Positions 4,080 through 46,684 of a DNA stretch of 64,000 bases are shown piece by piece. The notes beneath the pieces are model-generated. The model had not been told where the DNA came from. It worked only from the letters and a program-made list of their open reading frames with translations, and ran no database searches. Numbering within the stretch: the first letter of the stretch is position 1; every line of letters starts with the position of its first letter. The DNA lies in contig NW_024704742.1 of assembly GCF_018977255.1 (NCBI RefSeq), forward strand, positions 118,050,001-118,114,000. Reading direction: 5' to 3'. A program made the position numbers and the translations under genes. This DNA comes from Callorhinchus milii (Eukaryota).

Positions 4080-4233
4080 TCACTCCTGAGACAGCACAGA
4101 TTTTAGTTCCCGCAGCAGCACTGAGCCAATCACAGTTTTTTCCGTGTTTACGCTAAGCTGAACTGTCGACCCTTCCTTCACTTCTATTGTGATCAGCACC
4201 AATGCCCCACTGCTCACAGTTTTAGCTGCAAAC
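4080..4233 (-). CDS. AP3B1: AP3B1 terminal coding exon with TGA stop
   Basis: ttttcag|G TTT GCA...CAG GAG TGA. Encodes RFAAKTVSSGALVLITIEVKEGSTVQLSVNTEKTVIGSVLLRELKSVLSQE*. This C-terminus resembles beta3A (AP3B1) rather than beta3B. Confidence 0.97.
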
Positions 4234-4980
4234 CTGAAAAACAAATCATGTGATTAAAAAAGCTAATTAAAATGATTTCACCAGATACATTCATCTCTAT
4301 ATTGATACAACATGCACAATATAGAAAGCTAGCATCACTTTTACTGTCAAGATGGGAACAATGGTGCAACCAGTTTATTTCATTAGCGAGGATGTTAATA
4401 GTTGTGTTCAATTAATAGTTGTGTTCAAAGACCTTCCTCTGTGACCATGCCTATGGTCACCTTCCCTTGCTCACCAGCTCTGCATCGAGCTCCACCATTG
4501 CAAAGCTCTCCGAGACTCTACCCTGTGTGAGGGGCACAATATAAATGCAAATTGTTGTTGTTCAAAATGGATTAAACAAATTACATCCATATATTGCTAT
4601 TGTACATTGAACCTACCTGTAGAATATATTTTCCATATTGAAGCTACATACATATTCTCATCCACAGAGCTGTGTCATGGTCCAGGCTGAGACAGTGCCT
4701 TGTAGCCAAGGCACTGCCTGCAATGAAGTGAGGACGAGATCGAGAGAAATTCTCTTCCTCTCATCCTCTTTGTTAATGTTAAGGTACAGTATTAATCAAA
4801 CAAGTTCTATGCATTCCCGACCCCATTATAACTTTTTTAAAAAAAACTCAGGCTTCAGACGTAGGTGAATGTTAATGCGAGGATTTATTGCCAGCTTCTA
4901 GTTGTCCTAAGAAGCTGGTGATGGCCTTTCTCTTCACACTGCTGCAGTCCCTGTAGTGATAATGCTCCCCAAATTAACAT

Positions 4981-5190
4981 TATAATAATAATCCTTGCAT
5001 TTGATATAGGGCTTTTCACTTCTTTTAGACGTCTCAAAGTGCTTCACAGAACATACTGATAAGTGAATTTTTGACTGTATATTTGCGGGCGAAATGCAGC
5101 AGCCAATTGCGCACAGCAGGGTCACACAAACAGTCCTGGATTGAAGTGACCAATTTATTACTGTTTTTTTTTCTTGAGGGATTATTATTA
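4981..5190 (-). mobile_element. 5'-truncated tRNA-SINE
   Basis: Reverse complement of the SINE core and its (TTA)n tail. Confidence 0.85.
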
Positions 5191-6895
5191 GGCCTAAATT
5201 GGTTTGAAAGGTGAAGATCCAGACTCTGGTCAAGTCAGAGAAGCAAATGGTTCTGGCGGTGTAAGACATCGCTACTACAGACAACAGCTGGAGAAATGCA
5301 GTGGATTTCAAGTTTGAAATGGATCAGTTAGCTGTGAAAGCTCTACAGTTGAATATTATAGAGACATTCAACCGATGGGCTCGAAATCCATGCATATTTC
5401 TCAACATTGCCCCTTCTTTCCCATTCCAGTTTCTATTATCAACCTGGTTTTCAACATAGCTAGATGATTTGTGTTATTGAATATTCTGAAATTCGAGGTA
5501 AATGAAATCCATTGGATTGCCCTGCTCCACCAATTTAATGACTCAAAGAATGTAGTAAACTTGCTTCTAACACCATACTGACTACTCTTTATGGCCTGTG
5601 CATTCTTAACTTTACATGTACACTGACTACATCCCATAAAAAGCACTGAAGCATCTTTCCCCACTACAGATGTCAGGATAACTGGTCTATAATTTCTAGG
5701 TTCACATCTTACCTTTTTTATACATTGAGTGAGTATTCACCATCTCCAGTCCTCAGGTGTAGCTTCGAAATTGATGGAAATGCTAAAAATATTAACCCTT
5801 GAATCACCATGGTCAAGTTCACTTGACAAATGCTAAGTACTTATAGACTTCGTTGTGAAATTTATTTTTTAAATAAACTTTCTACTTCCTTTAAGACTTC
5901 CATTTGCCAATCCACATATGGAGGTCTGCTATATTTTTTCTAAAACTCTTTTTAATTCCAGTTGATAGTGTGCGCTCTTGTGTATTGAATTTTTATGTTG
6001 TTTAATAAAGCCATTAAAATAATTTTGGTTTATTTAACTATAAAACAGAAATAAATGTAATATTTCTGACTTCTGAAGTGTAGCTAGTAGTCTACAGGAT
6101 AATTTATGAACAAGGATCATGTTATTAGATCTGAAAAGAGCACACTATTTGAAACTAGGCACAATGATTGACAAATTAGTCAATGAAAAATAAGATGTGG
6201 AACACAAAGCAGAAGCAAAAAAGGGCAAGAACATCTAAAATGATTTACTTGGATTTAAATCTGTTTCGTATTTTAGGGGCAAGAGTTTACATTAAGATAG
6301 CCTAATATTGGAGTTGTTTTATTATCATAATATTAATGTTTTGCAGCATCAGAGTACATTAGCTGAAAATGTAGAGAGTTGGTTAATCCACAGAGAAGAG
6401 TCTCATTAGTCCTGTCAGCAGCCTATTGCGGTGAACTAGACACTGCCTATTTTCCTTGATATTTCCAGGCCTAATTTGATCCAGTTGATTCTTAGACATT
6501 CAATTCCGAGAATCTCTTCCTAATACCCGTATGCTTCTCCTGATGCTTCTACCTACATTATAGCGCGTGAAGTAAAACAACACGGTCCAGATTTCATCTG
6601 GGAATAATTCATTTTCGTGATCAACTATGATGTTCTTTCCTTCTCATTGTTCTTGATACAAATAATCCTTGCATTTGATACAGCGCCTTTCACATCACAA
6701 CTCTCTGAGAGCCAAAAAACATTACTCAGCAACGCTGACAAAGTGTTGGCCTTTTGCTCTTCTAATCTAGCTTAATCAGAAGAAGGCACAAATGATTAGG
6801 AAATCTTGGATTTTTAAAAATATATAAAATTCAGTTGATTTAAATCATCCAAACCAAAATTAATATGAGCAGTTAGCCACCAGGAGTAATGCACA

Positions 6896-7135
6896 AAAAT
6901 AAAAAACACAAGTTACTGGGAACACGCAGCAGATCAGGCATTATCTATGGAGAGAGAAAAGTGAGTTAACATTTCAGGTCCTTTCGTCAGAACTGTGTCA
7001 GAGGTTTGATGAAAGGTCATCGACCTGAAACATTAACTCACCTTCCTCTCGCCATAGATGATACCTGACCTGTTGCGTGTTCCCAGCGACTCTGGTTTTT
7101 ATTTCAGATTTCCAGCATCTGCAGTATTTTGCCTT
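6896..7135. mobile_element. Palindromic Penelope-type non-autonomous element with degenerate hammerhead ribozyme motifs
   Basis: Inverted arms of about 95 bp; TSD GGAGTAATGCACA at 6883-6895 and 7136-7148; (C/T)TGAYGA...GAAA cores on both strands. Confidence 0.75.
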
Positions 7136-7434
7136 GGAGTAATGCACATCTGTGTTCTACAATTTTGATAAATTATTTGCACAACTGAAATTTGAAATAT
7201 GCAACTCATAAACAGCAATAACCAGTGGTTTTATTCTGATACTTTTGCATTGTGTAGTCCTGATTTCAGCTGTGCCATCAGAGGTGTCAAGTGAAGGCCA
7301 ACTTCTTCAATACAGAGAGGGAACGAACTGGAGGGTCAATCACCGCCAGACATTCAAAGTTATCTTTCATCAGCTTCCATAAACAGAGGTCTAACACAGC
7401 CCACTGGCTTTGGAAAATCAACAGTGCGAGGAAA

Positions 7435-7842
7435 TTATTCTGTGAAGCGCTTTGAGACGTCTAGAAGACATGAAAAGCGCTAAATCAAATGCAAGGATTA
7501 TTTATTATATTATATTAACAAAACAGTAAAGGAGATAATCAAATTACAACAATTAAAAGCAACACAATATTTTCCCCTGAAATGTTTAAACTAATGTTGG
7601 GTGGCACTATTATTCAATGATGAAAATAAAAATAACCAAAATACTCATGTGGTATGAATGCAATAAACCAATAATAATTTAGTCACTCAATTTTTGACTA
7701 TTTGTGGGAAGCTGCTGTGCGTAATTGACTGCCACGTTTGCCCACAAATGTAGAGTCAGTTCACTTTACAGTACATTCTATGAAGCGCACTGAGACGTCT
7801 CAATGACGTGAAAAGCGCTATATCAAAGGATTATTATTATTA
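7435..7842 (+). mobile_element. Two SINE 3' fragments (~7435-7510 and ~7670-7842)
   Basis: Both carry the GTGAAGCGC...GAGACGTC...GAAAAGCGC...GGATTATT tail. Confidence 0.8.
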
Positions 7843-9473
7843 GTAGATCTTTCAGTGATAGCACAAGGAAATGTGATAATGATCAGCAAATAAGAGTTTC
7901 AACCAGACTCCAGTGGCTTATCGACAAAGAAAATGCAGCAAACGCCATTTCTAATACTGTTCATAAAGGCTACATAATGCAAGCTGAGGATTACATTAGG
8001 ATTTTGTTCAAATCTTCTGTGAAGCTGTCAAACATAAATCTGAACTTTGGTTTTGCTTCATTCCTCAACTGAAGACTGGTTGCAAGGCATACCTGCTAGA
8101 AGAATACAGCAAACTTTTTTTATTTTGAGCCTAATCTTGCACAACTGAATTCCAAGACACTGGAAATCTGTTAATTACATGGAATTAAAAGCCAAACTGT
8201 CCTCTTCAGCATTGTAATTGACTAAAAAGCCATTTGAGCCACAATAGACTCCTGTCAATCCTGCTAATTCTTTCTGCATGCAAAGCAAGACCCCGGGGGA
8301 GCCGAGTGAAAGCACAGCACAGTGGCCGCAGCCACTCGCCTCCCCCAACCAGAGAATCTCACTTTTTTGTTACTGCAAAACAAAAAACTTGTCGCACATG
8401 GTCTTTTGAAAACACTAACCAGTGTAGAGCGGTCCCTGACCTGCAGTGACCCCACTCTGCGGGCCGATCTCATTTTCCCTTTTCTGAATGACACGTGTCT
8501 GAATCGGAGCCATCTGCCTCAATTTGCGCAACATCTTTAGTCACAATAGGTCCCGGTTAGCCCTGACAACAGCTCACAATGCTTCAGCATAAAACACCAC
8601 CGGGCTGACAGCACGCTGTCGGTTATTCAACAGCGAACCAACTGGTCAGTGTCTCATGTCTGACAATTAGCGCGGGCCTTACACAGTGCCTGTGGGAGTC
8701 CTCGGGGAACTGCTTAATTATCATCACCATAAGAGAGGGAGTTTATCAGGAGATAATCAAAAACTTTCTCTTCAGACATAATTAGAATATTAGTTACTTA
8801 AGCAGGAAACAGATTCTCCTTAAATGAGGTGCGATTTTCTTCAGAACAGTTTACCATAGCAACGTGCTGTGTATTGTTCTGAAATTTAAACCTAAATCTG
8901 GAAGAACAAGAGAAATTAGTACTTTTTTTTGCAACCAAGGAACCTTTGTTTCATTTATTATAACATTTGGCAAGATTTCAAAGCAGACTAATGCTGTAAT
9001 CTGCTGCAGGATTACATTTCAAATTTAAAGCCACTGAGGATACATTCATAGTTAAACAACAACTCCTTGGGCTCTTCCATTTCAAATGACTCATTATATC
9101 CCAGCTTGAATATTATCAACAGTATTTCAATCTACTCAATGTACCAGGCAAGAGGTCTCCATTACTCTGGTTAATGCATCCACTAGAATTTTATTTTATC
9201 TCCTGAACAACTAAAATCCTGCAGAAATCAGTGTGCCAGCTGGGAGGAAGACTGTCAATAATGCTCATCTTTTTTTATTCAATTAAGAGTTATTCACGTT
9301 ACAGCTTGGAGCCATGCTTCCCCCCGCCCCCCTCAAGAACAACACAATGTGACATCAACTAAGAATAAACAGATCCAAGTTTAATGATTAGTGGGCTATG
9401 GCCCTGAGGCTTGTCTCGTACCAGTTTAGCTTAAAAGGTGAAGTCGAGTGCGATCAGGACAGTTTACAATTGT

Positions 9474-9584
9474 TTCGCCCACAAAACATAGTCAATTCAC
9501 TTTACAGAATATTGCGTGATGCGTTTTGAGACATCTAGAAGACGTGATAAGGCGCTATATCAAAACGCAAGGATTATTATTATT
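9474..9584 (+). mobile_element. SINE 3' fragment
   Basis: Matches the SINE tail consensus seen in the full-length copies. Confidence 0.8.
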
Positions 9585-12224
9585 TCTGGTACATCTTCAA
9601 TCCATTTCTGCCATTTCTTGACTGTTTTTGAAATTTGAGCCATTGAACCAGTTCCCTCAATAAACAAGATGTGCTCACTGTAACACACTGGTTGCCTGTT
9701 TTACTGGACATCAAATCCACCTTAATTTGAATCTTGCAGCTCATCCACACATTACATTTGTATACAACAAGATTTTTGAAAAAGCTTTTTTAAAAAATCT
9801 AATGTTAATTGCAAAGAATAATTATGTTTTGCAGAGGGGAAAAACACTGAGTAAGTCTCTCTATTTGTCCGTCTCTATTTTTAGATAAGCAAGACAACAA
9901 CTACTGTACTTGTCTTTATAAAGTGTTGTCCACGCAGGATAACATCTCAGACAAGTTCCATTGTATAAGTTACATTATTATTTTAACAGGTCATAGTTTC
10001 AAAGAAAATGCACAAATGCCTGTCTGAATAAATGGTAACCCATATGTTCGCCTACAAATACACCATCACTTCACAGCAAAAACGCTTGAAGAAGTTTAAC
10101 ATTACTTGATGATGTGATAAGGCACTTTACAAAATGCAAGAATTAACATTATTGAATTGTTTGTATATAAATTTGCTTTGTTGATTTAGGAACAAAGGGT
10201 CAAATTTTATTTTTTTTAAATACCACATATGCACAAGCTACCAATTTATGTTTTTTTTATAACTTTTCAATAAAAATCAAGAAACTTCGAACTGTCTAGT
10301 TTTCAGTCATTACTCATATTATCTTATTGCCCAATATATAAATTCTTATTTTGTCCAAGGCACTTCATTTTAAACTGTTGTTGCTCACTCATATTTCTCA
10401 TGCCTTTACTTTTACAGTAATTACAGAGTTTGAAAGTAATCTATCAAAGTCTCCACTTCAAGATCCTTATTGATGTACAAGGCCATGACTTAAGCTTCAA
10501 ATGCTCAATGTCAAAACGTGGATAATAGAATAGGATAAACTGCAAACATTGAGAATTTATGATCAAGATGCATCTTTTCTGCTTTCCCTTCATTTAAGGT
10601 CTCCCATTGTTTTCATTTCCTTCCCCTCACCCCCATCCCTCCCTTCAGTTAGGATTTGAGACAGTCTGGGCTCCCTATATATAAGACCAGCTTTTAGGGC
10701 ATGCTGTGCAGTGCCTCATCCAGCAAGCCAGCTGAGAACAGGCACAACTCATTCAATGAGAACAGGCAAGTGAATGTCAGTCAAAGCTGGGATTTGAACT
10801 GGTGACCTGATGGATTGGCAGTCTAACATTTTATTACCTTCCCCTCACTAAGAAATACACAGACCACTAGAAGCCACATAAAAACAGAATCGCTATATTT
10901 CTAGTGTTATGCTTAATATCTTCTTTTGTACATAAAGTGGTTAAATATTGTCCTCCTTTATGCTGGTGTGTAAGATGTAAAGCTCCATCAAGTGAATCAG
11001 ACTTGCAGTCATAAACATAGCATTTATAAAAACTGACAAAACTGCTTTAGCCCATCAAAAGGTGGACAGTTCACTTCGTAACACTCAAGATATCATATTC
11101 ATGTTTGACAAATCTGTGTGTAATGCTAAACCTGAACTCATGTTTTACATTAAATACGACTACTTGCCAGCTGTAGTATTTTCTTGCACAAATTTTACTA
11201 ACAGTTGGCCTTTAAAGCAGCGAGTTTCAACTAATATCATTTAGGAAACCATGCCTTTTTACATTCCAACTATCCATGAATTTCTAAGTCTTTTAGATTT
11301 TGAAATATACATTAAAGGACACTAAGAATTTTGTTCCAGCGCTTTTGGTTTATAGCATCTCCTGTCTCTGAATCTATTCCCTCACTTCACTATTTGTTGG
11401 CTACTAACAGCTGTGGCAATGATCCACTCGGGGCAACACTTTTTTTTACATGAATCCTTCAATTACCGACTGCTGAAGCAGACACAATCCTATTAGCAAG
11501 AAAGACGATCGCAGGATGCATTGCCCTGCCCTAGTTGTACAAAAATAATTAGCCCAAAGTTGACAAATGTTGAATGAAACCACACAAAGGCTGCATGCAA
11601 GACGAGCAGCTTTATGAAAGAGGGAGCCCAGAGTAATGAACGGGCTGTGCTGTCTGCAACAGAATTAAATGGAGCTGGAAGAAACTTACAGAAGAGTCCT
11701 GCTGAGAAATGTCATGATTTAAAACATTTGTACAAACATTAAATATAGGCTATGAAGTCTTATAATTTGGAATGAGCAAAATTAGTTTGAACAAATTATG
11801 TTTCGCAACAAAGATAGCACTATATTACAAAAACTTCATACATCAACAAAGTTTCCAAATCTGCAATTCTTCAATTCCATGTTTGTTATCAAAAACATCC
11901 AGTTTTATTTATTGACGTGTTTTTATTTGCAAAGATTCTCAGGAATTTACAAAATACCAACACTTCAATATTTCCAAATAAATTGATTTTTAGAAGAATT
12001 TAAAAAAACAATTGTTCTGTTGTATTTCTTACTAAATTAATTGCTGTTCATTTACATCAATAGAAACATTCATATATCATTCATTTACAAAATAAAATTT
12101 AAACCTGGGAAAATGTAGAGCAATTTTACTACATTTAAAAGAACAAAACTGGTATCATTTCAAAACCACTGTTGCAACAGAATTAAATTCTGAAATCTAA
12201 AACCTTCAACAGAAACAGAAGTAG

Positions 12225-12243
12225 TGTTGCCCCCTAGTGGTTC
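12225..12243 (-). promoter_or_regulatory. Candidate CTCF site
   Basis: The minus strand reads AACCACTAGGGGGCAACAC, a close match to the core CCACYAGRKGGCR. Confidence 0.55.
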
Positions 12244-14307
12244 AGATGTTAACAGCCTGGCCATGTTTTACTAATGTAATGGAATTTCTCTGTTGTTCAG
12301 AGTTCAAGACTAACACCTATTAGCAGGCAGGTAGTCATGGTATTATCAATCACAATTTTCAAAGTTCACCACAATATCAGTACACGTTGGCCAATTAATC
12401 TAAGATCACCTACAACTTTCCAACCATTTTACCTTTTTATTGCACTTCCACATTTTATATAAAAAACAATGATGTGGTAATTACCCCAATTTCTGAATTA
12501 GAGGCTGCACCTTCTTCAAAGCCAGTTTATTAATATCAACGTAAACTATTACTACTTTAAAACCTGCGTGAAGTTAACAATCTGCTGCCGGTATCCCAGG
12601 TCACGGAAGTAATTAAATGTAAGACCTGGTATATTAGAATTATTTTTATACAATTCTGTAAAAAAACAGGTTTGATTGATTGACTATACATGACTGATAA
12701 TTAAACCAGAGTTCAGTTACACTCAAAATAAAAGACCTTTGGCATTACAGACCTTACATCATTTTTATTTTGAGTGCATCTCACTCTAACCAAACCCTTA
12801 GGATTTATCCCCAACTCACAGGCTCTATCTCTTACGTGACGGAGGCTTCTTGTGCAGAATATTAAGGATTAAACTGTCCGGATACAGGAAATCAAGCAGG
12901 AATTCTAAAATGAGCTCTCTGACCAGAATTCCTTAATTGTTGGAGTGTGCGAACTCATTAGGCATGCTGCAATAGACTTACACTTTATCAAGCCATAATA
13001 AAATTGGATGGGAGTTTAAGGAGAGGCACTTATCAGACTTAACCTGAGAGATTTGTTTTGTCGTAGTCTAACCTTTCCATTGTTCAGATTTGCAGCAGTT
13101 TCCACGTGAATTGACAGGCAGTTTTTGGCTTTCACAGTAACGCCAGAACAGCTGCTGGACTTATACTCCACACAGCAGCAATGCAGCACGGCCCATGAAG
13201 CCTTAAAGATAGCGCTGTGGCAGATTTAATCTGGCAAGGTATTCGTGCAAAGGCAAACTTAAAAAAAACATTCGGCCTTGGCTGAATATTTAGATAATTT
13301 GGGATAAAAAAGCAGATTTTTTTGACATTTACAGTATTTAACCAAGGAGATTTTAGAATTATTTACGGGCTCGGTATAACATTTCTCAAAACATTTCAAT
13401 GCAGAGGAAAATCCAATGAATAAACTCTGTCACAACAAAATAAAATCAAGTGCTTTTAATAAAGCATTAGATGTGGTTTAAAAGATGTCTTGCAATGCAT
13501 CATAACTAAAATAATGGTTTTACCATGATCAAAAATGAAACAAGGTGTCTAAACCAATATTTTTGCTACCTCTGAATTGTGAGAAATATCAGTGATGTAT
13601 ACTAACTATGCCAAACCTGATAATTTAACAGTAGATCAAAGAGAGATTAATAGATACCCAGGAGTGATTACAAGGCATTAGTTTAATCAAGGGGGTACAG
13701 ATAATGTCAATATTATTCAAATGCAATGCTCAAGTAGGTTTCAACATTCATTTGCACTCCCATGCATTTGGGTCCTTTTAAAAATAACATACAGTAGGCA
13801 CACTGGGATGATTTTATTCTTTGAGCCAATTAACAGGATCATGATAGAAGACAAATCATAGAGACACTGGAAAAGACCATTACACTTCATTTGGTTGGTC
13901 CCAAAGTTAAGAATAAATTTTAAAAATTAACAATCTTTACCTCTCATATCCCCAAATTGAATTCTTTGCCAAACAGCTATCTAATTCCCTCTTGAATTTG
14001 CTGACAATCTGCCTCTATATACAGTCTGTTCAACCATGACAAACATTATAAGGGTGCATTTTACCAATGCTTTTTAGAACTGAATTTGGCATTCAATAAC
14101 TCAATACGATCATCCTTGAGTCTTTATTTTTCCTGCCTGTCCACTGACTATGTCTAGTCTTAGGTGCTAGTTTCAGCTATAGTCATCTCAGTGCTGTATC
14201 CCTTTAGCCATATACTTAAAATCAAACTTTTCTTTAATCCCAGTGTACAACGTGCTATGGTTTCAGCTGCCTATCCACTAATACATCCCAAATCTCTCTT
14301 CTGTGTT

Positions 14308-15912
14308 AGAACATAAGAATTAGGAGCAGGCCATTCGGCCCCTGTAGCCTGCCCCAGCATTCAATAAGATCATGGCTGATCTATTCTAACTCCACCTACC
14401 CGCCTTATCCCCATATCCCTTAATCCCTTTATCCACAAGAAATCTATCAATCTCAGTCTTGGATATGTGGAGTCCTGTAGCTCAGTGGTTAGAGCACTCG
14501 CTTTGCAAGTGAGAGACCTGAGTTCAATTCCAGGCAGAGGTCGAAACCTTGGGCAAGTTTCCTTACTCCACACAGAGCCTAATAATAATCCCTCCAAAAC
14601 CAAAAACAATAATAAATTGGTCATTTTCAATCTACGACTGTTTGTGGGACATTGCTGTGCGCAATTGGCTGCCGCGTTCGCCCACAAATATACAGTCAAT
14701 TCACTTTACAGTCTATTCTGTGAAGCGCTTTGGGACGTCCTCCCGACGTGAAAAGCGCTATATCAAATGCAAGGATTATTATTATTATTATTATATGTTC
14801 AAGGACTGAGCATCTACAGCACTTTGGGGTAGAGAATTCCATATATAAGTTTTTTCTCAACTCAGTGCGAAAGGGCTTACCCCTAATTTTAAGACTGTGA
14901 CCCCTAGTTATAGTTTCTCCAAACAGGGGAAAAAGTCTCCCACTATCTATTCTGTCATGCCCCTTAATAAACTTATAGGTCACCTCTCATTCTTCTTTTT
15001 ATTCTATATTCTGGAGAATATAGGCCTAAATTGCTCAACCTATCCTCATAACGCATCCCCCTCAACCCTGGTACCAACCTAGTGAATCTACGTTGTACCC
15101 CCTCCAAGGCGAGTACATCCTTTCTTAAATAGGGAGATCAAAACTGCACACAATACTCTAGGTGCGGTCTCATCAGGGCCCTATACAGTTGAGGCAAGCC
15201 TTCCCTACTCTTATATTCTAACCCTTTTGTAACAAGTGCCAACATACCGTTTGCCTTCCTAATTGCTTGCTGTACCTGCAAACTAACTTTTTGTGACTGG
15301 TGTACAAGGACACCCAAATCCCTCTGAACGCTAACACTATCTAGTCTCTCCCCTTCTAAAAAATAATCTGCTCTACTGTTATTGCCACCGAGGTGGATGA
15401 CCTCACACTTCCCTACATTATACTTCATCTGCCACCTATTTGGCCACTCACCTAACCTATCTATATCTCGTTGCATTTTTTTAATGTTTACTCAGTGTTT
15501 ACTCTCCCTCTTAGTTTAGTGTCATCCGCAAATTTGGATATATTAAGTTTGATGTCCCCATCTAGATTGTTGATGTAGAATGTAAATAGTTGAGGCCCAA
15601 GCACGGATCCTTGTGGCACTCCACTAGTCTCATCCCGCCAATCTGAGAAGGACCCATTAACCCTACTCTTTGTTTTCATCCCATTAGCCATTCTTGAATC
15701 CATGCTGATATATTCCGCTTAATTCCATGGGCCCTAATCTTGTGAATCAACCTTTTATGCGGCACCTAATCGAATGCCTTTTCGAAATCTAAATACACTA
15801 CATCCACTGTTTCCCTCCTATCTAATCTACTTGATATGTCCTCAAAAAAATCTAAAAGATTTGTTAAGCATGACTTCCCTTTTGTAAAGCCATGTTGACT
15901 CTGTCTAATCAT
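14308..15912 (-). mobile_element. 5'-truncated, degenerate CR1 LINE (RT C-terminus and 3' end), interrupted by a SINE
   Basis: RT motifs QHGFTKGKSCLTNLL, VYLDFEKAFD, GVPQGSVLGP, KFADDTKL and RPHLEYCVQF, broken by stops and frameshifts. Confidence 0.93.
14469..14792 (+). mobile_element. Full-length young tRNA-SINE, short variant, inserted in the CR1
   Basis: A box TAGCTCAGTGG, B box GTTCAATTCC, (TTA)n tail; TSD ATATGT at 14463-14468 and 14793-14798. Confidence 0.95.
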
Positions 15913-16315
15913 ATTGTGATATTCATATTCAGTGTTATATCCTGAAGACAGACAGACATCACATACTTGGTGTATGATGACATCCATATTGAAAGTTTAG
16001 GAAGTGATAGCTGGGATAAAAGTCAATATAACAGTGTTCATATAACATCATAAACTGAGATGCATTACGGCTTTTATATTAATTTCAGTATATTATGCTA
16101 TTATTATATTGTACAGTACAAACTGACATTTATTTAGCCATTTTTAATAAAATGTACAATTCATGTTTTATAATTTATTAATACCAACATTACTGGGTTA
16201 TTTCATTGCATGCCTCAGCACCTAAAAATATGGTAAATATGATTTTGTTAATGTTCCCAAAGTATTAATACCTATATTGTAATCAATTGCCAAGGACATA
16301 TATGGTCAGGCAGCA

Positions 16316-16879
16316 GCATAAAACACTGGTTAGGCCTCAGCTAGAATACTGCGCCCAGTTCTGGGCACCACACTATAGGAAGGATGTTAAGGCATTGGAA
16401 AGGATGCAGAGGAGATTTACAAGAATGGTACCAGGCATGTGGGACCTTTATTATGAGGAAAGGCTAGAGATGCTGGGATTATTCTCATTGGAGCAGAGAA
16501 GGTTACAAGGAGACCTAATAGAGGTCTTCAAAATCATGAGGGGATTTGATAGGTTAGAAAGGGAAAAACTGTTTCCACTGGTGGGTGTGTCACAGATTCA
16601 AAATAGTATCTAAAAGAAGCAGAGGGGAGGTGAGAAGAAATGTTTTCACGCAGCGAGGTGTTCGAATCTGGAACGCATTGCCTGAAAGGGTGGTCGAGGC
16701 CGATTCGATAACTACTTTTAAAAATGCGGTGGACGGATATTTGAGGAGGACGGGTTTGCAGGGTTATGGGGAAAGGGCTGGGGAGTGGGATTGACATTAA
16801 TTGCTCTATTCAAAAAGCCGGTACAGACTCGATGGGCCGAATGGCCTCTTTTTGTGCTGTACGATTCTATGATTCTATG
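16316..16879 (+). mobile_element. CR1 LINE 3' fragment
   Basis: Encodes VRPQLEYCAQFWAPHYRKD...LFSLEQRRLQGDLIEVFKI and ends in the tail (GATTCTAT)2. Confidence 0.92.
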
Positions 16880-17120
16880 TCCTAAGGCGCTGGACAGTTG
16901 AGGTTTTTTGGATCCGAGCTGGGAGTTGGGGTCAGGAGGGGTGGAGGGCAGGGTGGGTGGGAAGGAGGCCAAAGGCACAGTCCAATCAAAGAACAACAAC
17001 AACAACAACAACATTCCATTTATTGAGCGCCTTTCACGTCGGGAGGACGTCCCAAGGCGCAAAGAAGAAGGTCTTTAGATGAGACTTAAAGGAGGTAAGA
17101 GAGGGGGTGAAGAGGAGGGA
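16880..17120 (-). mobile_element. L2 LINE 3'-end fragments with (CAA)n tail
   Basis: Contains GAGCGCCTTTCACGTCGGGAGGACGTCCCAAGGCGC next to a (CAA)n run. Confidence 0.8.
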
Positions 17121-17231
17121 TTCCAAGGTGAATAGATTAAACCATGAGTAGATTATTCTGGAAAGTCATGATTTTCAGAAATTATATAGCTATCTATGTG
17201 ACCAATGCACCAAAGTAAGAAGCCCAGTTAC

Positions 17232-17370
17232 CTGTGAACATTATCCTGGCTCGAAGGTACAACCCCAAGGTTTGACACGTTCACTAGCTTCTGCACAATT
17301 GCTTGTCGAGAGGAATTCTGTGGTGCGCACGTGATGCTTGTAGAATTTTCATTCATTCCTGACAGTTTTC
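17232..17370 (-). CDS. AP3B1: AP3B1 coding exon (about human exon 26)
   Basis: tttgcag|GA AAA...CAC AG|gtaact. 139 nt, phase 1 to 2. Encodes GKLSGMNENSTSITCAPQNSSRQAIVQKLVNVSNLGVVPSSQDNVH. Confidence 0.96.
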
Positions 17371-20757: not shown

Positions 20758-20789
<32 letters not shown>

Positions 20790-21559
20790 CCTTGCATTTG
20801 ATATAGCGCTTTTCACGTCGGGAGGACGTCCCAAAGCGCTTCACAGAACACACTGTAAAGTGAATTGACTGTATATTTGTGGGCGAACGCGGCAGCCAAT
20901 TGCGCACAGCAATGTCCCACAAACAGTCGTAGATTGAAAATGACCAATTTAATTATTGTTTTTAGTTTTGGAGGGATTATTATTAGGCTCTGTGTGGAGT
21001 AAGGAAACTTGCCCAAGGTTTCGCCCTCTGTCTTGAGCAATGATAAGCAATGATAAGGCACTATATCAAATGCAAGGATTATTTTATTATTATAAAATGT
21101 CTCAAGGTGCTTCTGAGAGTTTTCTCTCTAGTGACTCTGTATTTGTAGGCAAATGAAGCAGCCAATTTGTGTACAGAAATGTACCACAAACAGCCATGAA
21201 GTGAATGACCTGGGATCGATTCCCGGGCAGGGCGAAACGTTAGGCAAGTTTCCTTACTCCACATGCCTCTGTTTACTCAGCAGTAAGTAGGAACCCGGTT
21301 GTTAGTCGATTGGCGGATCACTTTTCCGGGGGTAATAATCTTTTCCAAATAAATACAAAATAAAATAATAATAATTTGGTCACCCAATCCACGACTGCTT
21401 GTGGGACACTGCTGTGCACAAGTGGCTGCCCCGTTTTGCCCACAAAACATAGTCAATTCACTTTACAGTATATTCTATGAAGCCCTTTGAGATGTCTGGA
21501 TGACGTGATAAAGCGCAATTAGAAATTATCATCTAATCAAATATAAGGATTATTATTAG
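20686..21559. mobile_element. Cluster of nested SINE pieces, including a young copy at 20758-21027 (-) and a long variant at 21208-21559 (+)
   Basis: Several SINE cores and tails in both orientations. Confidence 0.88.
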
Positions 21560-30298: not shown

Positions 30299-30858
30299 AC
30301 AACAACAACCAAATTACATTTATAGAGCCCCTTTCACGTTGGGAAGACGTCCCAAAGCGCTGAACAGTCAGATGTTGGAGCCCGAGCATGGGAGAGAGAT
30401 GGTGTAGGGGGGAGCGAAGGCAGAGAGGTGGGAGGGAGACCAAAGGCATGGTCGAAGAGAAAGGTCTTGAGACCGGCCTCGAAGGAGGCAAGGGAGGAAG
30501 CGAGGCGAAGGGACCGTGGGATGGAGTTCCAGAGCATGGGGGGAGAGAGGCTGAAAGCCCGGTCACCAATGGTCGGGCGGGAGACATGGAGCAGGCCGAA
30601 GCCTGATGAACGGAGGGAGCGGGCAGGTTGGTAGGGAGTCAGCAGGTCAGAGGGAGGAGGGGGCAAGGCCATGGATAGCCTTAAAGGTGAGGACGAGGAT
30701 CTTAAACTCGATCCTCTGGGGGATGGGGAGCCAGTGGAGTCAGGTGAGGGTGGGAGTGATGGGGTCACGGAGCCTGGTGTGTGAGAGTACACGAGCTGCA
30801 GAGTTTTGGATGATCTGCAGCTTGTGAAGGGAAGAGTTCAGAAGGCCGATGAGGAGGG
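30299..30858 (-). mobile_element. L2 LINE 3' part
   Basis: The minus strand encodes DLLTPYQPARSLRSSG...RAFSLSPPMLWNSIPRSLR and ends in the L2 3' hairpin and (TTG)n tail. Confidence 0.9.
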
Positions 30859-31119
30859 ACCAACCTGCCTGCTCCATCCACACAGCTGGCACTAGCCTGC
30901 TTCATGTCCCCCACCCTGCCTTCCCCACCAGCGGCGGTCAGGCCTTCTGCCATCCCCACACTCTGGAACTCCATTAATTTAATAATATAGCAGGCAAATA
31001 TTGAATCAGAGATCATAGTTATGTTGCACACACATTCCTTATAATGCTTCTTGATGCCTTCATTTATGTTCCATTGTTTCTGCTTGGCTCCTGTCATCGC
31101 CTCCTCACTTCAGATGCTG

Positions 31120-31882
31120 ACAGCTATGAATGGATGCTCTTTCCACCTCACCGAGCAAGTACAGAACCTTGGTGTCTTGTTCGACCCTCAACTGTCCTTT
31201 AAACTTCACATCTGTGCCATTTTGTCAGCCTTCCCCAACCTCCACAACATTACCCACCTCCGCTACTACCTCTCCCTTCAGGCCACTGAATCCCTCATCC
31301 TTGCTTTCATTACATCCAGGTTTGACTAAGCCAACTCCCTACTTGCCGACTTCCCAACTCTTCCCTCTACAAGCTGCAGATTATTCAGAACTCTGCAACT
31401 CGTGTTCTCTCCTGCACCAAGCTCCACGAGCTGATCATCCCCATCATCGCCTGGGTTCACTGGCCCCCCCATCCCCCAGAGAATTGAGTTCAAGATTCTC
31501 GTCCTCACTTTTAAAGCCCTTGAAGATCTTGCTCCTCCCTAACTCTGCAACCACTGAAACCTTACCAAACTGCCTGCTCCATCCACTCAGCAGACACTGG
31601 TCTGCTTCATGTCCCCCCACTCTGCCTGCCCCACCAGCGGCGGTCAGGCCTTCTGCCGTCCCCACACTCTGGAACTCTATCAAAGAGTCCCTTCGCCTCT
31701 GTCAAGGACCATCTCAACATCTTCCTCTTTGAGCTTGCCTTCGATAATCCTCCTACCCCCACCCGACCACCACTCTTCGATTCCAACTCCCAGCTCGTGT
31801 GCAAACCCTTGACTGTCCTGTGCCCTAGAATGATTTCCTGACGTAAAAAACACTATATAAATACAAGTTGTTACTGTTGTTA
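31120..31882 (+). mobile_element. Older L2 LINE 3' part
   Basis: Encodes QVQNLGVLFDPQLSF...LILAFITSRFD and ends in the tail TATAAATACAAGTTGTT. Confidence 0.88.
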
Positions 31883-32759: not shown

Positions 32760-33242
32760 CTAAAACAGAAAGCAGTGTGGATTGAAGTTTGCAAATACAC
32801 AAGTGGGAGATATGGTAGTTTCTTTGCTTTCCTAATCTTGACAATATTGAATCAAAGACAACAGTTAACCCTTCAACATCCATAATTTGAAATCTATCCT
32901 TGGAGGCGACAATTATCAGGTGGGCTGTGATAATTATCACTGCTAATAACAAACCCATCGCTGAAAAATGTGGTTGAGTTTAGAACAAGACCGTTACAGA
33001 TATGATTCCGACTCAACTCGAAAGGTTGGCCCCCAACTGCCTGCAGGGACCTTCGGGTTTGTCACCATAGAATTGCTGGGTAATAGAATATTGGTCCAGC
33101 TCTTAATGTTTTTGTTGAGACAGTAGCCTGTGATGAAATTGGGGGAGCAGGTCAGACCCATGACTTGTCTTTAGAAAGGACAAAGATGGACATCAGAGGG
33201 CAGGGTTATTTTTATTCACCTATCAGTACTCATTGAAAGGCA

Positions 33243-33561
33243 TTATAATAATAATAATAATGCATTTGATATAGTGCTTTTCACGTCGGGAGGACGTCCC
33301 AAAGCGCTTCACAGAACACACTGTAAAGTGAATTGACTGTATATTTGTGGGCGAACGCGGCAGCCAATTGCGCACAGCAATGTCCCACAAACAGTCGTAG
33401 ATTGAAAATGACCAATTTATTATTGTTTTTGGTTTTGGAGGGATTATTATTAGGCTCTGTGTGGAGTAAGGAAACTTGCCCAAGGTTTCGCCCTGCCTGG
33501 AATTGAACTCAGGTCTCTCGCTTGCAAAGCGAGTGCTCTAACCATTGAGCTACAGGACTCC
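33243..33561 (-). mobile_element. Full-length young tRNA-SINE
   Basis: Near-identical reverse complement of 14469-14792, with short flanking CATTA repeats. Confidence 0.95.
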
Positions 33562-33710
33562 ATTAACTGATAGCTCGTCCCACACAGGGAATGCATGGCA
33601 AATAAAGATTAGGGGCTTCTTATTCTCAAAGAGAAGAAAGGCTAGAAGCTCAATATCAGATTCATGAGAGGGAGCACCACAGCCCATTATATTTACACTC
33701 TTGTATACGA

Positions 33711-34281
33711 CAGTAAAACTCACATAAGGACCATAACATTTAATATGACTTACGCAAAGTCCGAGTTGCAGGCAAACAGTATAAATCGTATAAAACCTGA
33801 TTTAATCAATAATCCACACTGCACAAGCGTAATTCAATGCGGCCAGTAAGTATGCATGCAATGCTTCGTCACTGCAGCCAGTAACTGTGCATGCGGTGAC
33901 CGGGCAAGATAGCATTTCCCGCGATTCAATGCATCTTCGCCTTTGCTGTATGCGCATTTACCACAAGCATTGGAATCGCAAGAAATGATGTTCTTCTGCA
34001 ATGTCGACGGATCAAGACTATGTTTTCCGCAATTCAATGTAGCCGGCCAGTAAGTGTGCATGTGTCGAGGGGTCAGGACATCATTTCCCGCGATTCAATG
34101 TAGCCAGTAAGTGCGGGAGTAATGGAGTGTAGGGGAGTGGCAATATGAGTTAGGAGGTGATTAATACAAGAAATACAAAGAAATCTCAGTCATTTTGATA
34201 CGAACTGAATTGGACTTGGGTGAATGTACTACTCAAGTGATTATACGATTTACAAAGATATGACATATGTGAGTTTAACTG
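33711..34281. mobile_element. Putative pogo/Tigger-like MITE
   Basis: 16-bp TIRs CAGTAAAACTCACATA and CAGTTAAACTCACATA (1 mismatch); TA on the right flank; internal CpG-rich repeats. Confidence 0.6.
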
Positions 34282-37400: not shown

Positions 37401-40334
37401 GTAGGCGGGAACAAACTGACCTAAGATGTTTTGGGAAACACAGGAAAACAGGAACAGGATAAGGTCACTCAGTCCATCAAGACTGTTCTGCCAGTTTATT
37501 AGATCTTGGCAGATTTTTAAATCCCAATGCCTCTCCCTTTCATCATCTCCTTTACTAACTACTACCCATGTGTCTGTGCAGAACCCTCTACCAAGGAGAA
37601 GAGCCTTCCACTATCTAACTTGTCAATTCCTTTTATTATTTTAGTTGAAAAGATAATTGTTTCAACTAAAATAATGAAAGGAATTGACAAGTCTGAAAAC
37701 TTTTTTTTTTAAAAAGTATTTCGTTTTTGAAGCTCACATATAAACGGGTGCCAATATTGATTAATTCTTAGCCAAACCAATATTTTACCAGAGTAGAACA
37801 GTTAAGAAGCTCCACTGGTAAGGGACTTTTCTGGAAACATTACACCACTTTTAAACAGAAGAGTGCTCAAAACTTACAGATTCAATAAAACTGGGGAGAT
37901 AATAATAATAATCCTTGCATTTGATTTCACGCCTTATCATGGTCATTGAGAGGTCTCATGTGCAGAAAACTATCACTGCAGGGGAATCAGGGATAGGCAA
38001 AAAGTTATTGCCTTACCAGCAGTACAAACATTTCAAGAAGGAGTTCAAAAAAATTCAGGAATACAAAAAAGCCTAACTGTAAATTATACAATACACAGCG
38101 TTTTTGAATAATGCAATTTCCTCAATCCTAATGGCTTCAGTTTTTTACACTTACACTACAAATCTCCTGAACATAAACATAAAAAAGCAAAATCAAGTTT
38201 TATTACAATTGAGTCAGAGTCAACCTTGCTGGCCCACAGCCCAGTTTCACTGTTCTCATTCTGCATCAAGGACTAAAAAGTGCACAATGTACCAGCAAAT
38301 AAAACCTTACTCAGCAAAATGTTTTTTTTAAAAAAAACACTGCATCATAAACTTCAGAGTATTTTAGTTAAACAATCAGAGACCTAGATACAAGTCACAT
38401 GCTCTCTCTCTCTCTCTCTCTGGTGCACCTGAATTTCCATCTATTAGTTTGAAGCATTTAAAAGTAATGCACATATTACTGAGCAATACATTTATTGAAA
38501 CCTCTGTTATGTCATCTCACTATGTAAATGTTTTGATGTAATTGAGGAAATTAACAGAACTTTTTTTTTCGAAAAGGCTTTTGCATATTAACATATCTGG
38601 GAAAGTTAATGGACACTGGAGTGTTTGCATGGTACTAACAGTGAGTGGATATAACTTTTTTGATAGAACATTTATTGCAACCTCATGCAAATACACAAGT
38701 TGAATCAACACACAATGAAATTCAATAAACATTCAAACTATTCTAATACCCATCAGTCAAGTACAGCTTGCTGGACTAATGCAAACTAGAATAAATATGG
38801 ATTAAATTGTGCAGTTCATAATAAATGGAAACAAACAAATTAATACTAATACACTGTATTAGTGCAATTATGATCAAACATGTTCAAACAACTATCTCCA
38901 GTTAGCAACCAGCCTGGAACAGCCTGCACACCAAAGTCTTACCCTTATATATAAAGGCCACTTTAGCTCAGTTCCCTGAATGGTTGTTTGACTGTATTTA
39001 CATCTGAGCACTACTAAACTGCTTGGCATTCCTACCTCCCCAATGATTTTCAACTACAGGTTCTATCTCAACCCTCAACTATACATTTCTGTGCCACCTC
39101 TGCCCCGGAAAACACACTGAACTAAAAATTGCAATATAGAACTCGTTATGAATAACAAATAATATTTTTCCAAAAGATGCGTGCAACAGCTTCAAGAATG
39201 AAAATGTCATGTTACATCTTTAATTCTCACTGTTTTTTCACCTCTGCTTTCTCCACCAAAAGAACAAACATCTCTCCACAAAGTTCCCGGCCTGCAACAA
39301 AGTGAGCAGCTATCAGCCTGCAACAAAGTGAGCAGCAAACTAGCTAGAGTGCCAAATAACACTCTGTAACCAGCTTGTTTCTCCTACCCGAGGTCAGAGC
39401 TTAGCTTCTAAGATCTAAATAGTTGTTCTGCTGAAAAGTAATAAATTATCTTCAAATATGGCAGAGTATGCACACACTTGAATGCCCCGGTCCCCCTGTA
39501 CACAAGGCATATCCCAACCCAAAGCCTTCCTTTCTCTCCCTTGCAAATGGACTCACAACTCATCAAACGAGAGATTCTGATCAAGGTGCTTTGGATCTCA
39601 TAATTCCAGAATACCCACCCAAACTTCCTCCCATTACAACATTGAACCATTTCTTAAATGACCTTTAATAAATGAGTTCAGCACCCAGGCCTCAATCAGC
39701 CTTTCTGGTAAGCAATCCTAGTTGTTAATTATCTCTGGGAAAAGAAATACGTCCTGGTGTCTGTCCTGAAATTGCCCGTTGCAACTCTGAACCTGTGCCT
39801 TCTTCTGCTGCTTTGGCATATTTGAAAGTATTGCTCTGGGTTGACTTTCTCAATTCTATTTGAAATCTTTTATTTCTATACAACCTCCTCTCAGACTTTA
39901 AAAAATAATTTTAGCGTTTCCAATTATTTTTCTTCCGCATCGTCATACATTTCTTTGCTTATGATCTGGCCTCCTGGGTTGAGAAGTATTTTACAGGCAG
40001 CGATTGCTCTCCGATATGACGCCCAAATGGCTCCTGTTCATGTGTGAATTTTGGCTGCGACTATTGGCAGCCACTGGACTACAGAAGATGCTATGGCCAA
40101 GTCTGTCCTCTCCCTAACCAGCTACCACACATATACTAAACCAGTGTTGAAGAGGAACCAGGAGCAGGAACCCTGACAAATCACCTCTTTAACCTTGGAA
40201 AGTCAAGACCAATTTAGTCTCCTCATCCAATCACAGCTAATACCAGCAATCTGAGTATAGACCAGGATTCAAACCAACTAGCTCCCATTGCATTAGCTGC
40301 AGCTCTATCCGCTACATCGTCAGGCTACCCCCAG

Positions 40335-41325
40335 GCATTCTTTTGAAGACTGAAGAGCCCTAGTCTGTCTGATCATTGTTCATAGCTCATAGTGGAATCC
40401 TGTAGCTCAGTGGTTAGAGTACTCGCCTTGCAAGCGAGAGACCTGGGTTTGATTCTCAGCAGGGCGAAACTTTGGGCAAGTTTCCTTACTCCACACGCCT
40501 GACAATAATCCCTCACAAGGAAAAAAACAATAATAAATTGGTCACTTCAATCCACGACTGTTTGTAGGACACTGCTGTGCGCAATTGGCTGTCGTGTTTC
40601 GCCTACAAAATACAGTCAATTCACTTTACAGTATATTCTGTGAAGCCCTTTGAGAAGTCTAGAAGACGTGATATGGCTCTATATCAAATGCAAGGATTGT
40701 TATTATTATATCTTTAACCCTGAGTTATCATCCTTGTGGCTCTCGTCTTCACTGCCTCTAGAGACTGGCTAACCACTTTGTGCTGCAGTGTCCAGAACTG
40801 TATGCAGTACTCCAGGTGCAGCTTAATCAGAGCACTGCACATGATTTCTGGGGATCTGCTTGTTGCTGCCTCACACTGTTTTGACAAGATAAACCATGTG
40901 TTAAGTTAACATCCCAAGATCTCTTTCAGCTTCCCGTTTGCAAGTTCTATCCCATTCATTTCATTCTTTACAGTTCCATTTATTTAGCAGCATTACCCTT
41001 AATTTGCCGATCATCAACTCTCCTTTTGAAGCCCTATGCTGCCTCCTTAGTCCCCCCTTCCCCCCAGCCAATTTGGTAGCATCTGTAAATTTAACTATCA
41101 TGCACTGTGTTTGTGAATCAAAGTTATTGATGTATACAAGTTACTGGTGGGGTTCCAGTGCAGAGCTCCAAGGTACCACATTTAATACATCCCTACTTTT
41201 TGACTCAGTTCTCCTAACGACCACCTTCTACTTCCCTTTCTCCATGTAATTTACAATTCAGGTCTTGCTATAGATATCAGTGACAACAATTTGTGAAAGA
41301 ATCTTTTGGAAGCCTAGATACACCA
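40335..41325 (-). mobile_element. Old CR1 RT fragment hosting a SINE
   Basis: Reverse-strand remnants of LEYCIQFW (CAGAACTGTATGCAGTACTCCAG) and KFTDATK (TTGGTAGCATCTGTAAATTT). Confidence 0.7.
40394..40709 (+). mobile_element. Full-length tRNA-SINE, short variant
   Basis: A and B boxes, a TGC anticodon-like loop, core and tail. Confidence 0.93.
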
Positions 41326-43025
41326 CAACAGCAGCAAAATTACACTTGTATAGCGTCTTTCACATCAGGAGGATGTCCCAAGGCGTTGGACAATCAATGT
41401 TTTGCACCCTAGCTGGGGGTCAGGATCGGCGAGGGTGGAAAGCAGGGGTGAAGGAGGGTGACCGAAGGCACGGTCTTGAGAGGCAAGGGAGGGGGTGAGG
41501 CGAAGGTTCTGCAGGATGGAGTTCCAGAGGGTGGGAGCAGAGTGTCAGAATGGTGGAGCGGGCGAGGTGGGGACGTGAAGCAGGCTGCAGCCTGCTGAGC
41601 AGACGAAGCGGGCAGGTTGGTAGGCTGTTAGGAAGTCACAGAGGTAGGGGGGAGCAAGGCGATGGAGAACTTTAAAGGTGAGGACCAGGATCTTGAACTC
41701 AGTATCCTCTGTGTGAGGTGGGGACCAGGATTTCAGCGGCTTGTGGAGTGAGGTATTTGCGGAGACGGGCGATGCGTCGGAGGTGGAGGAAAGCGGTGCT
41801 AGTAAGAGACCGGATCCCGTACACAACCTAAGTGTCAGGTTCGACCCACAATTATCCTTCCTCCCCCACATCCGGTCCCTCACCAGCACCGCTTTTTTCT
41901 ACCTCCGAAGCATTACCCATCTCTGCCAATACCTCACTCCAAAAGCCACTGAAACAGTGGTCCATGCCTTTGTCACCTCTCAGCTGGACTATTCAAATGC
42001 CCTCCTCGCCGGTCTCACCTCCACCACCATCCATAAAATTCAGGTCATACAAAACTCAGCCACCCACATTCTTACCCGTTCCCCGATTACACCAATCCTT
42101 GCCAGACTGCACTGGTTGCCTGTCCCAGAGAGGATTGACTTCAAGATCCTCACCCTTGTCTTCAAACCCCTCTACTTCTCTGCAATCCCCTACCTCTCTG
42201 ACCTCCTCTCTCCTCACAACAGTGCCCGTTGCCTTCGTTCCACCGGGTCTGGCCTGCTCCTTGTCCCCAGAGGCCTCCGCTCCACCCTCTGCGGCCATGC
42301 TTTCAGCCACTATGCCTCGAGGCTCTGGAACTCTCTTCCTCTCTCCCTTCGCCTGCCCCTCACCCTGACCATTTCCCCCCTGCTCGGGTCCTGACCCAAC
42401 TGTCCAGCGCCTTGGGACGTCCTCCCGACGTGAAAGGCGCTCTATAAATGGAATCTTGTTGTTGTTGCCCCCTTTCTTCCTATTTTCAGATATCGGCTGA
42501 AGACCTTTCTTTTCAACCGCGCCTTTGGTCACCTTCCTCCCCTCCCCCTGGCTCGGTCCCGGGATCCGTTACTGTGAAGCGCTCTGAGACACCGTCTGGC
42601 GTGGAGGGTGCTATATAAATCCAAGTTGTTGGAAGCCAGAGGAGTCAGGCGAGGTGGGGTGATAGGGTCACGGAGCCTGAGACGGGAGAGGACACGGGCT
42701 GCAGAGTTCTCGATGATTTGCAGCCTATGGAGGGAGGAGTCGGGGAGGCTGACAAGTAGGGAGTTTGCGTAGTCAAGCCTGAATGTTATGAATGCGTGTA
42801 TGAGGATTTCGGCAGGTCATTGTATAAATAGGAGTTAGAAAGTATAGCTGGGGGTCGCCAAGGTTCCGGACTGGCTTAGCAAGGTGGAGTGCGTATCCTT
42901 AGAGGGTGATGCTGTCAGTCTAAGCCTTCTGAAAATGCTTCCTCACTATGTCATCAGTGCCTTGGGACATCCTCCCGACGTGAAAAGCGCTGTACAAATG
43001 TAATTTTGTGGTTGTTGTTGTTGTT
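41323..43025. mobile_element. L2 cluster: ~41323-41816 (-), ~41815-42468 (+), ~42632-42920 (-) and further 3' tails
   Basis: ORF 41741-42394 has L2 ORF2 C-terminal motifs (HAFVTSQLDYSNALLAG, LHWLPVPERIDFKIL, LWNSLP); several L2 3' hairpins with (TTG)n tails. Confidence 0.92.
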
Positions 43026-45420: not shown

Positions 45421-46684
45421 ATTAAAAAATGCCAATTCTCCCTAGTCATCAAAAAATTATAGCTGAGGTGACTGATCATAGTTTTGGCCACAGATTCCAT
45501 TGGACTCCCCAGTAAATGTGATTCCAGTGAAATTCTGCTGAAAAACAGGGATGTTGGCTTAGACAACAGTTCACAGCTGGGAACACAATTAGCCAATGAT
45601 ATAGCGATGAAGTTGGATGGCATCTGTTTCAAGCAGACAGCTTGGGTACAGATTCTCAATACTGTATGTAGTATAATGCAAATCACACAACAAATTTGTG
45701 TGAAATCACCATGATATTTCTCATATATGAGCAATATGGAATGTTTTCCATTGACACAAAAAAATGTAACTAACTTCTCATCAGTCACCAGCAAAGTGCT
45801 AGTGGAAAACCCCCACTGTGAATGCAGCTGTGAATGTAGCAACTGACACCCAATAAATGTTGCTCAGCTTTCCAATATAGACAATGCCAGGAAATAAGCT
45901 TATTTTACACAATATAGGCAAGGCTTTATGCATTTTCTCAAGTGTCACTATGACAACGACTGGAGCCTGCTCCTATAATTCCTCATTATACCACCACAGA
46001 ACTGAAATCTTAAGATCCTGAGTATTGTCATCAAAGAAAACCTACACATAAATACCCAATATTAGTTTATTGTTGATTAATAAGTAAAACTAGACACAGT
46101 GGAGAGCCAGTCATCTGAAATAGTGAGACCAGGCCATTGTGAATAAATTAACATATTATAAGCACTCCCAAGACACGGTGCTATATAAATGTAAGATGTT
46201 GTACTTAAATACAAATTTTGTCAGCACACAAAATACAATTTGGTTACAATGCTAATATTCTTTTATGAAGCACTTAAACTGTCACATGAGCAGGGTTAAC
46301 AGGAGCTGAATGGGAGGATTCCCTACCCCTAGTGACTAGGTCCTTGAAAGAGTCGTTGCTTCACAGCTTCGGCGCCTTCCAAAAGCCTCAAGTGCACCTT
46401 ATCAGGGTGTGTGCAGGTGCACACTGTTTTAATGGAAAAGTCCCAAAAAACGTGTGGACAATCTATGGGCAGTGGAAGGAATGTACCGTAAACAATGGAA
46501 TGTTTTTTGTATCAGGAGAAAAGGAAAACTTGTAACAGAAGATGTTGTTTGTTTTGGATTTCTGTTGAACCAAATATTATATTTAAAAATAAGTATATAT
46601 TTTTAAAAAACGTTGCTCATTCCTCTCCTACTACTCCCTTCACAATCCTCTCCAATTGGGTTTCTGTGCTGCTTACAGCAAAAA

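Follow-up and report, generated by a model that had tools for sequence, protein, structure and literature searches.

A tailed, head-to-head repeat with minimal hammerhead motifs in the last AP3B1 intron of Callorhinchus milii, probably the footprint of a Penelope-like insertion

Minimal type I hammerhead ribozymes have been described in the pseudo-LTRs of Penelope-like elements (PLEs), where they occur as dispersed single motifs, in thousands, in fish, coelacanth and frog, and also as pairs on opposite strands 100-700 bp apart (Cervera and De la Pena 2014, PMC4209133); more recently, hammerhead repeats derived from PLE ends have been reported in one cartilaginous fish genome (bioRxiv 10.64898/2026.07.22.740005, 2026). 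PLE insertions have themselves been reported to carry an inverted copy, 5'-truncated, at their 5' end, together with a tail of 30-40 bp at one end only (Craig et al. 2021, PMC8557442); in rotifers the tail is 31 bp long, the target-site duplication (TSD) measures 8-10 bp, and the palindromic, head-to-head junctions have been ascribed to self-priming (Arkhipova et al. 2013, PMC3846280). Work with the purified protein of a lizard PLE, Poseidon of Anolis (PAc), reports that both target strands are cut and extended, that two reverse transcriptase (RT) start sites bound the tail, that insertion proceeds without need of ribozyme cleavage, and that the hammerhead requires protein for its cleavage (Frangieh et al. 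2024, PMC11167929). The published signature of PLE insertion consists of arms placed head to head, a tail restricted to one of them, a TSD and a terminal hammerhead.

The stretch of DNA analysed here, a window of 64,000 nucleotides from Callorhinchus milii whose positions are counted from its first letter, holds a sequence of a kind that is already described, its class having been known since 2014. The hairpin that it forms is most plausibly the head-to-head trace that PLE-type insertions usually leave, and not a new mobile unit. We put at roughly 80% the probability that the insert records one old retrotransposition event of a PLE family, in which the copied unit was the last ~135 nt and the head-to-head arrangement was produced by integration; the parent family is most likely Penelope-like.

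The placement of the insert in the last AP3B1 intron, proposed by the initial annotation, holds: the intron (4234-17231) belongs to a gene on the minus strand and is bounded by the last coding exon (4080-4233, minus strand; Pfam AP3B1_C_2, E 2.3e-13, with an acceptor site) and by the penultimate exon (17232-17370, minus strand; AP3B1_C_2, E 0.0021, below the curated cut-off), the splice sites of the two exons being in phase. A PDB search with the last exon gave 0 matches.

The insert had been described as 240 bp enclosed by perfect 13-bp repeats, and the two repeats (6883-6895 and 7136-7148, plus strand), presumed to be the TSD, are indeed identical at 13/13 nt. They stand at the borders of the repeat depth described below, which begins just inside the left one. 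Exact 13-mer pairs 100-500 bp apart number only 3 across the window, and the chance of such a pair falling at the insert borders is ~3e-5; given the divergence of the arms (14-18%), a pair of this length had a ~8-14% chance of staying intact. No empty site with a single 13-mer was seen among the contigs of four sequencing runs (X1, X5, X8 and X12), and a BLAST search (word size 7) revealed no second copy of the insert within the window. One of the three 13-mer pairs lies in a 55-bp direct repeat (33877-34100), whose copies are 82% identical with a spacing of 169 bp.

Inside these borders, an inverted copy of the repeat unit (6896-6997, minus strand) and a direct copy (6999-7104, plus strand) face each other head to head across a palindrome centre at 6998; the arms first placed at 6898-6995 and ~7001-7104 are thus recovered, with the palindrome reaching slightly further in. 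The self-match (6897-7104) has 77% identity (E 3e-42), while in a global alignment of arm with arm 82 of 100 paired columns are identical, the remainder being 13 transitions and 5 transversions; five of the arm differences lie in CpG context, and the left arm has a 6-nt gap. The predicted fold of 6883-7148 has an energy of -122.8 kcal/mol (z -13.6), matched in stability by 0 of 200 shuffles. The right arm alone continues into a 31-nt stretch (7105-7135, plus strand) which the initial annotation did not mention, which has no mirror on the left, and whose length falls within the 30-40 bp reported for the one-end tail of PLEs. Family contigs aligned to the left arm do run into a mirrored tail (place 6902; joint 6902-7101) which is absent at the locus.

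The repeat family to which the arms belong was followed in contigs matching 6700-7400 at 80% likeness, obtained from four of 24 runs: X1 and X5 (organism A), X8 (organism B) and X12 (organism C), with 5,140, 4,704, 5,617 and 4,097 matching contigs, respectively. Summed depth, which is no copy number, ranges from 1,500 to 1.4 million within 6892-7135, against 0-90 in the flanks, close to what a single copy would give (border bin 7132-7155 left out), and repeat depth over the right arm is high in all four runs; a high-copy dispersed repeat is therefore confined to the insert, with fixed ends and most often single. The repeated unit is one arm with the 31-nt tail (about 7001-7135, ~135 nt), starting at the ribozyme, rather than the hairpin. 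At the 5' edge, 115, 119 and 99 contigs (X1, X5 and X8) pass 7007 upstream into long unlike DNA, and the consensus of their loose ends agrees only over a few bases, those of the 5' stem I strand plus the core C; since the contigs enter unlike DNA after so short a shared stretch, the single unit is the common form. The 3' edge of the family is placed by clustered loose ends at 7130-7135, the end of the tail, in all four runs. The tail is covered 5-20 times as deeply as the two hammerhead bins together, an excess to be expected either of copying from a fixed 3' end or of a tail common to other families.

Single copies seem to start within a few bases of the stem I 5' strand (6999-7007) and without scatter (X1, X5 and X8); this fixed 5' edge may correspond to the start of a transcript, to a splice site or to a point at which the RT stops. 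By eye, two stretches of the unit, each a pyrimidine run followed by AG, resemble splice acceptors (7041-7057 and 7095-7107, plus strand); the second coincides with the start of the tail, and the mirror of the first (6945-6961, minus strand) is sense for AP3B1 pre-mRNA. An ATG in the hammerhead core opens 19 codons (7009-7065, plus strand), and a second ATG (7058-7165, plus strand) opens a frame through the tail; the region of the PLE ORF start has been reported to coincide with the hammerhead (PMC11167929). The peptide read through the tail had no relative in a protein search (6 candidates, 0 matches), a result of little evidential weight.

The insertion is older than the split of the three organisms, since the junction of tail and right-hand flank is also found on contigs of B and C, whose flanks have diverged from the window by ~10% (28 other letters over 7102-7390), and the 14-18% divergence of the arms agrees with this age. 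In X5 the same junction is present; the lack of cover over its left flank carries no evidential weight. No description of this repeat family was found in the literature searched, a collection of papers with few subscription journals. As for more distant sources, an arm-pattern scan of metagenome contigs gave 0 matches, and a core-pattern scan gave 1 match in metagenome contigs, 0 in viral contigs and 1 in prokaryote genomes; the core-pattern matches (L001:5001-5027 and L002:5001-5025) agree in pattern only and were rejected as chance, that of L001 lying inside a 343-aa prokaryotic ORF.

Both hammerhead-like strings are present exactly as they were first quoted, one on each strand, and both are best described as relics. 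That of the minus strand (6963-6995) has kept the core boxes 3-9 and 12-15.1 intact, together with a stem I of 4 bp, has U at 15.2, and has lost part of stem II to a 6-nt deletion; that of the plus strand (7001-7039) has U at position 3, a bulged A after 9, A at 16.2, one mismatch in stem I and a 5-bp stem II closed by A-U. The extra base between positions 9 and 10.1, the A-U closing pair (against a consensus G10.1-C11.1 in >80%) and a UU triplet are common to both arms, and each arm keeps one half of a decayed CG at 15.2-16.2; the CG of helix III, and with it the dimer-forming palindrome, is inferred from this opposite CpG decay in the two arms only. The pairing actually observed amounts to 4 bp of stem I on the left arm and 5 bp of stem II on the right.

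Searches for the motif gave a mixed picture. When a minimal-hammerhead descriptor is relaxed (1 core mismatch, at least 5 for stem II and at least 4 of 5 for stem I), it finds a single site in 64 kb, at 7006 in the plus arm, and 0 sites in every one of 8 shuffles; when stem II is loosened to 3 bp, the plus motif is again the sole match in the window, against 2 matches in the 8 shuffles. The strict descriptor finds 0 sites in 64 kb, and the minus-arm motif is missed under all three settings. Comparison with Rfam, by which the initial annotation had proposed to check its reading, yielded no hammerhead family among 10 matches (5000-9000) or 13 matches (6950-7055) at E<=10; weak matches to miRNA-like hairpins and snoRNAs were rejected, their scores being far under the gathering scores. 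Folded alone, the motifs do not exceed shuffles in stability (z -0.19 to -1.97, four sequences).

The family speaks more clearly than the local copy. Where the locus has T, at 7006, loose ends in X1, X5 and X8 carry the core C; the loose-end consensus behind 6980 (72 contigs, X5) supplies the six bases that stem II of the left arm has lost; and in one contig each of B and C the 3-9 box is intact, with differences in the bulge letter and the loop. Except for its A-U closing pair, the family thereby fits the metazoan PLE hammerhead consensus (PMC4209133). The same type I layout, short stem I and core boxes recur in that work, as do the bulged base after 9, the absence of a real helix III, the two-base palindrome before the cleavage triplet, the dispersal of single copies in thousands and the opposite-strand pairs; G-C closes stem II there in place of the A-U found here, and yet 3 among the 44 alignment rows listed have A-U, 2 of these 3 being marked PLE-linked, so that G10.1-C11.1 is usual rather than strict. 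The 44 rows listed include no cartilaginous fish, and both motifs of the present locus are damaged. The claim of a Penelope-like, minimal type I hammerhead, made from the local letters, predicted a core C and a complete stem II, both of which the family has, and judged on sequence it appears largely right at family level.

An insertion of PLE type would account for these features as follows. The copied unit would comprise the minimal hammerhead, ~65 further nt and the 31-nt tail, that is, the last ~135 nt of the element; the PLE protein, with its RT and GIY-YIG activities, would nick the two target strands 13 bp apart; extension of one strand from the outer RT start site would give the arm with the tail, and the inner start site would give the mirror arm without it, copied either from that one RNA or through the new DNA folding back on itself. 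Since both arms would be extended from the same template, or one from the other, they would start out identical and share their 5' end point, decaying only afterwards; the hairpin would be a by-product of integration, the head-to-head arms forming in its course, and the hammerhead would act, as a dimer or assisted by a protein, for the parent element.

Published PLE insertions with an inverted pLTR agree with the locus in the head-to-head copy adjoining the 5' end, the palindromic junction, the tail on one copy and the short TSD, here presumed, around the whole (PMC3846280; PMC8557442); they differ from it in that no ORF lies here between the ends, only ~135 nt and its mirror, and the TSD is 13 bp as compared with 8-10 bp in the rotifer cases (PMC3846280). 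In PAc, likened here by layout alone, the 3' end follows the hammerhead after slightly more than 100 nt, as in our family, and the tail is likewise bounded by two ends, which fall at +91 and +122 from stem II in our family; an RT start of PAc lies 111-118 nt into the ORF (PMC11167929). No GIY-YIG match was found in 45 reading frames of the window (43 of at least 100 aa and 2 of 76 aa).

The initial annotation took the hairpin itself to be the mobile element, and a two-armed unit could be imagined as a rod-like non-coding RNA with one hammerhead per polarity, copied whole by a PLE or by way of circular RNA. We consider this quite unlikely, although the palindrome is symmetric to one base and rare letters are common to both arms: at 6941/7061 the arms share a letter where 95-97% of the family depth has another, and the letter they share at 6926/7076, contradicted in all four runs by the loose-end consensus at 7095, is probably a second case. 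A common rare letter points to a single source followed by separate decay, as the PLE-type insertion would also have it, and could instead reflect a rare subfamily or gene conversion between the arms; at four positions among the arm differences listed (6942 and 6957; 7042 and 7051), each arm has the family letter twice. Against a two-armed unit stand the single copies with unrelated upstream DNA (99-119 contigs per run, three runs), the tail confined to one arm, and a hairpin that obstructs the ribozyme fold by 26-30 kcal/mol. Few contigs cross the centre, depth at 6996 being 0.41, 0.32, 0.63 and 0.06% of that at 7042 in the four runs; this may be partly an artefact of assembly, since contigs tend to break in repeats and hairpins, and no listed contig spans the stretch. 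The other junctions vary. Among the 15 joints listed of 154, 8 lead from left arm to right arm on the same strand, no two of them at the same pair of places, with second arms ranging from nearly full ones to tail-only stubs, mostly from B and C; the 7 strand-changing joints mostly reflect single units with a tail. A match across 6983-7129, in one contig each of B and C among the 32 pieces listed, implies that a similar centre exists at another locus. This, and the likelihood that contig assembly drops hairpin centres, leaves some room for a subset of the family that moves as a ready-made two-armed RNA of ~240 nt, rod-like, viroid-like, genome-encoded and PLE-mobilised, the single arms being its truncation products; we hold such a subset to be very improbable.

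Quite unlikely, too, is an origin in two steps, either as separate insertions back to back or as a local inverted duplication following insertion. The family is certainly abundant, PLE copies have been reported in or beside earlier copies (PMC6765202), and a later duplication would likewise leave letters common to both arms; a single TSD pair surrounds both arms, however, and the centre has no such repeat; the arms share one 5' end position, and head-to-head joints recur across the family.

A LINE of CR1/L2 type as the mover of a SINE-like or retrozyme-like repeat, with twin priming as the cause of the inversion, is very unlikely as well, even if a transcript could start at the fixed 5' edge by stem I, the 3' end is T-rich, the TSD measures 13 bp and LINE-type RT relics occur in the window (2 RVT_1 matches in 45 frames). 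Twin priming inverts part of the RNA without duplicating it, whereas ~100 nt are duplicated here. The one-sided 31-nt tail agrees with PLE reports, and the animal retrozymes, short non-coding repeats with the same type I hammerhead and probably derived from PLE ends, are reported as head-to-tail arrays of pLTR derivatives, an arrangement that allows dimer cleavage (PMC7229834; bioRxiv 10.64898/2026.07.22.740005); the copy at this locus is head-to-head, with no tandem unit beside it, no other copy in the window and no dimer in cis. Finally, a palindromic MITE, derived from a DNA transposon and resembling a hammerhead by chance, is highly improbable: long inverted arms, a TSD and the want of an Rfam ribozyme match would suit it, but the arms are not both terminal, the 31-nt tail lying outside the right one, the single-armed, single-ended majority of family copies largely refutes it, and the descriptor result (1 match against 0 in 8 shuffles) and the core kept in the family speak for a true motif.

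Little is to be expected of the ribozyme at this locus. The dimer cleavage first invoked for this pair is inapplicable to it, because the two motifs lie on opposite strands: each transcript carries a single sense motif, and the two local motifs cannot dimerise in cis. Cleavage by dimers is reportedly treated in a paper by Lunse et al. The motif which is sense in AP3B1 pre-mRNA, that of the minus strand, is without most of stem II, and forcing the ribozyme fold is predicted to cost 30 (plus) and 26 (minus) kcal/mol against the long hairpin. With one sense motif per transcript and such an advantage for the hairpin, the local copy is probably inert, as had been supposed from the damage to both motifs, and the modelled energies suggest that the hammerhead at this locus most likely does nothing; U at position 3 would by itself be no proof of death, as one PLE-linked row of the published alignment has it (PMC4209133). 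The 200-nt hairpin in AP3B1 pre-mRNA could be a substrate as double-stranded RNA, a function that is putative.

The locus adds to the described class one repeat family with an A-U closing pair and has little significance otherwise. The thousands of tiny one- and two-armed copies, with their fixed 5' edge and one-sided tail, form a natural data set on the inverted ends of PLEs, which bears on the choice between priming on both strands and fold-back.

The window contains several other repeats. A 75-bp AT-rich palindrome (37618-37692) is 91% self-complementary and has no match to the hammerhead descriptor. A broken LINE-like RT relic lies in the same intron as the insert (14699-15996, minus strand; RVT_1, E 5.7e-8 at 15491-15718), and decayed LINE-like fragments, some of them in inverted pairs, occupy 30299-31880, 41325-42467 and 46492-47779, with a 242-bp palindrome among them (41722-41963) and an RVT_1 match at 46492-47076 (E 2.5e-13); from their motifs, both RVT_1 matches are presumably of LINE type. 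A dispersed SINE-like family of ~320 bp, which we take to resemble a shark SINE, is represented by three copies 96-97% identical (14468-14794, 33242-33562 and 20770-21036) and by many shorter ones.
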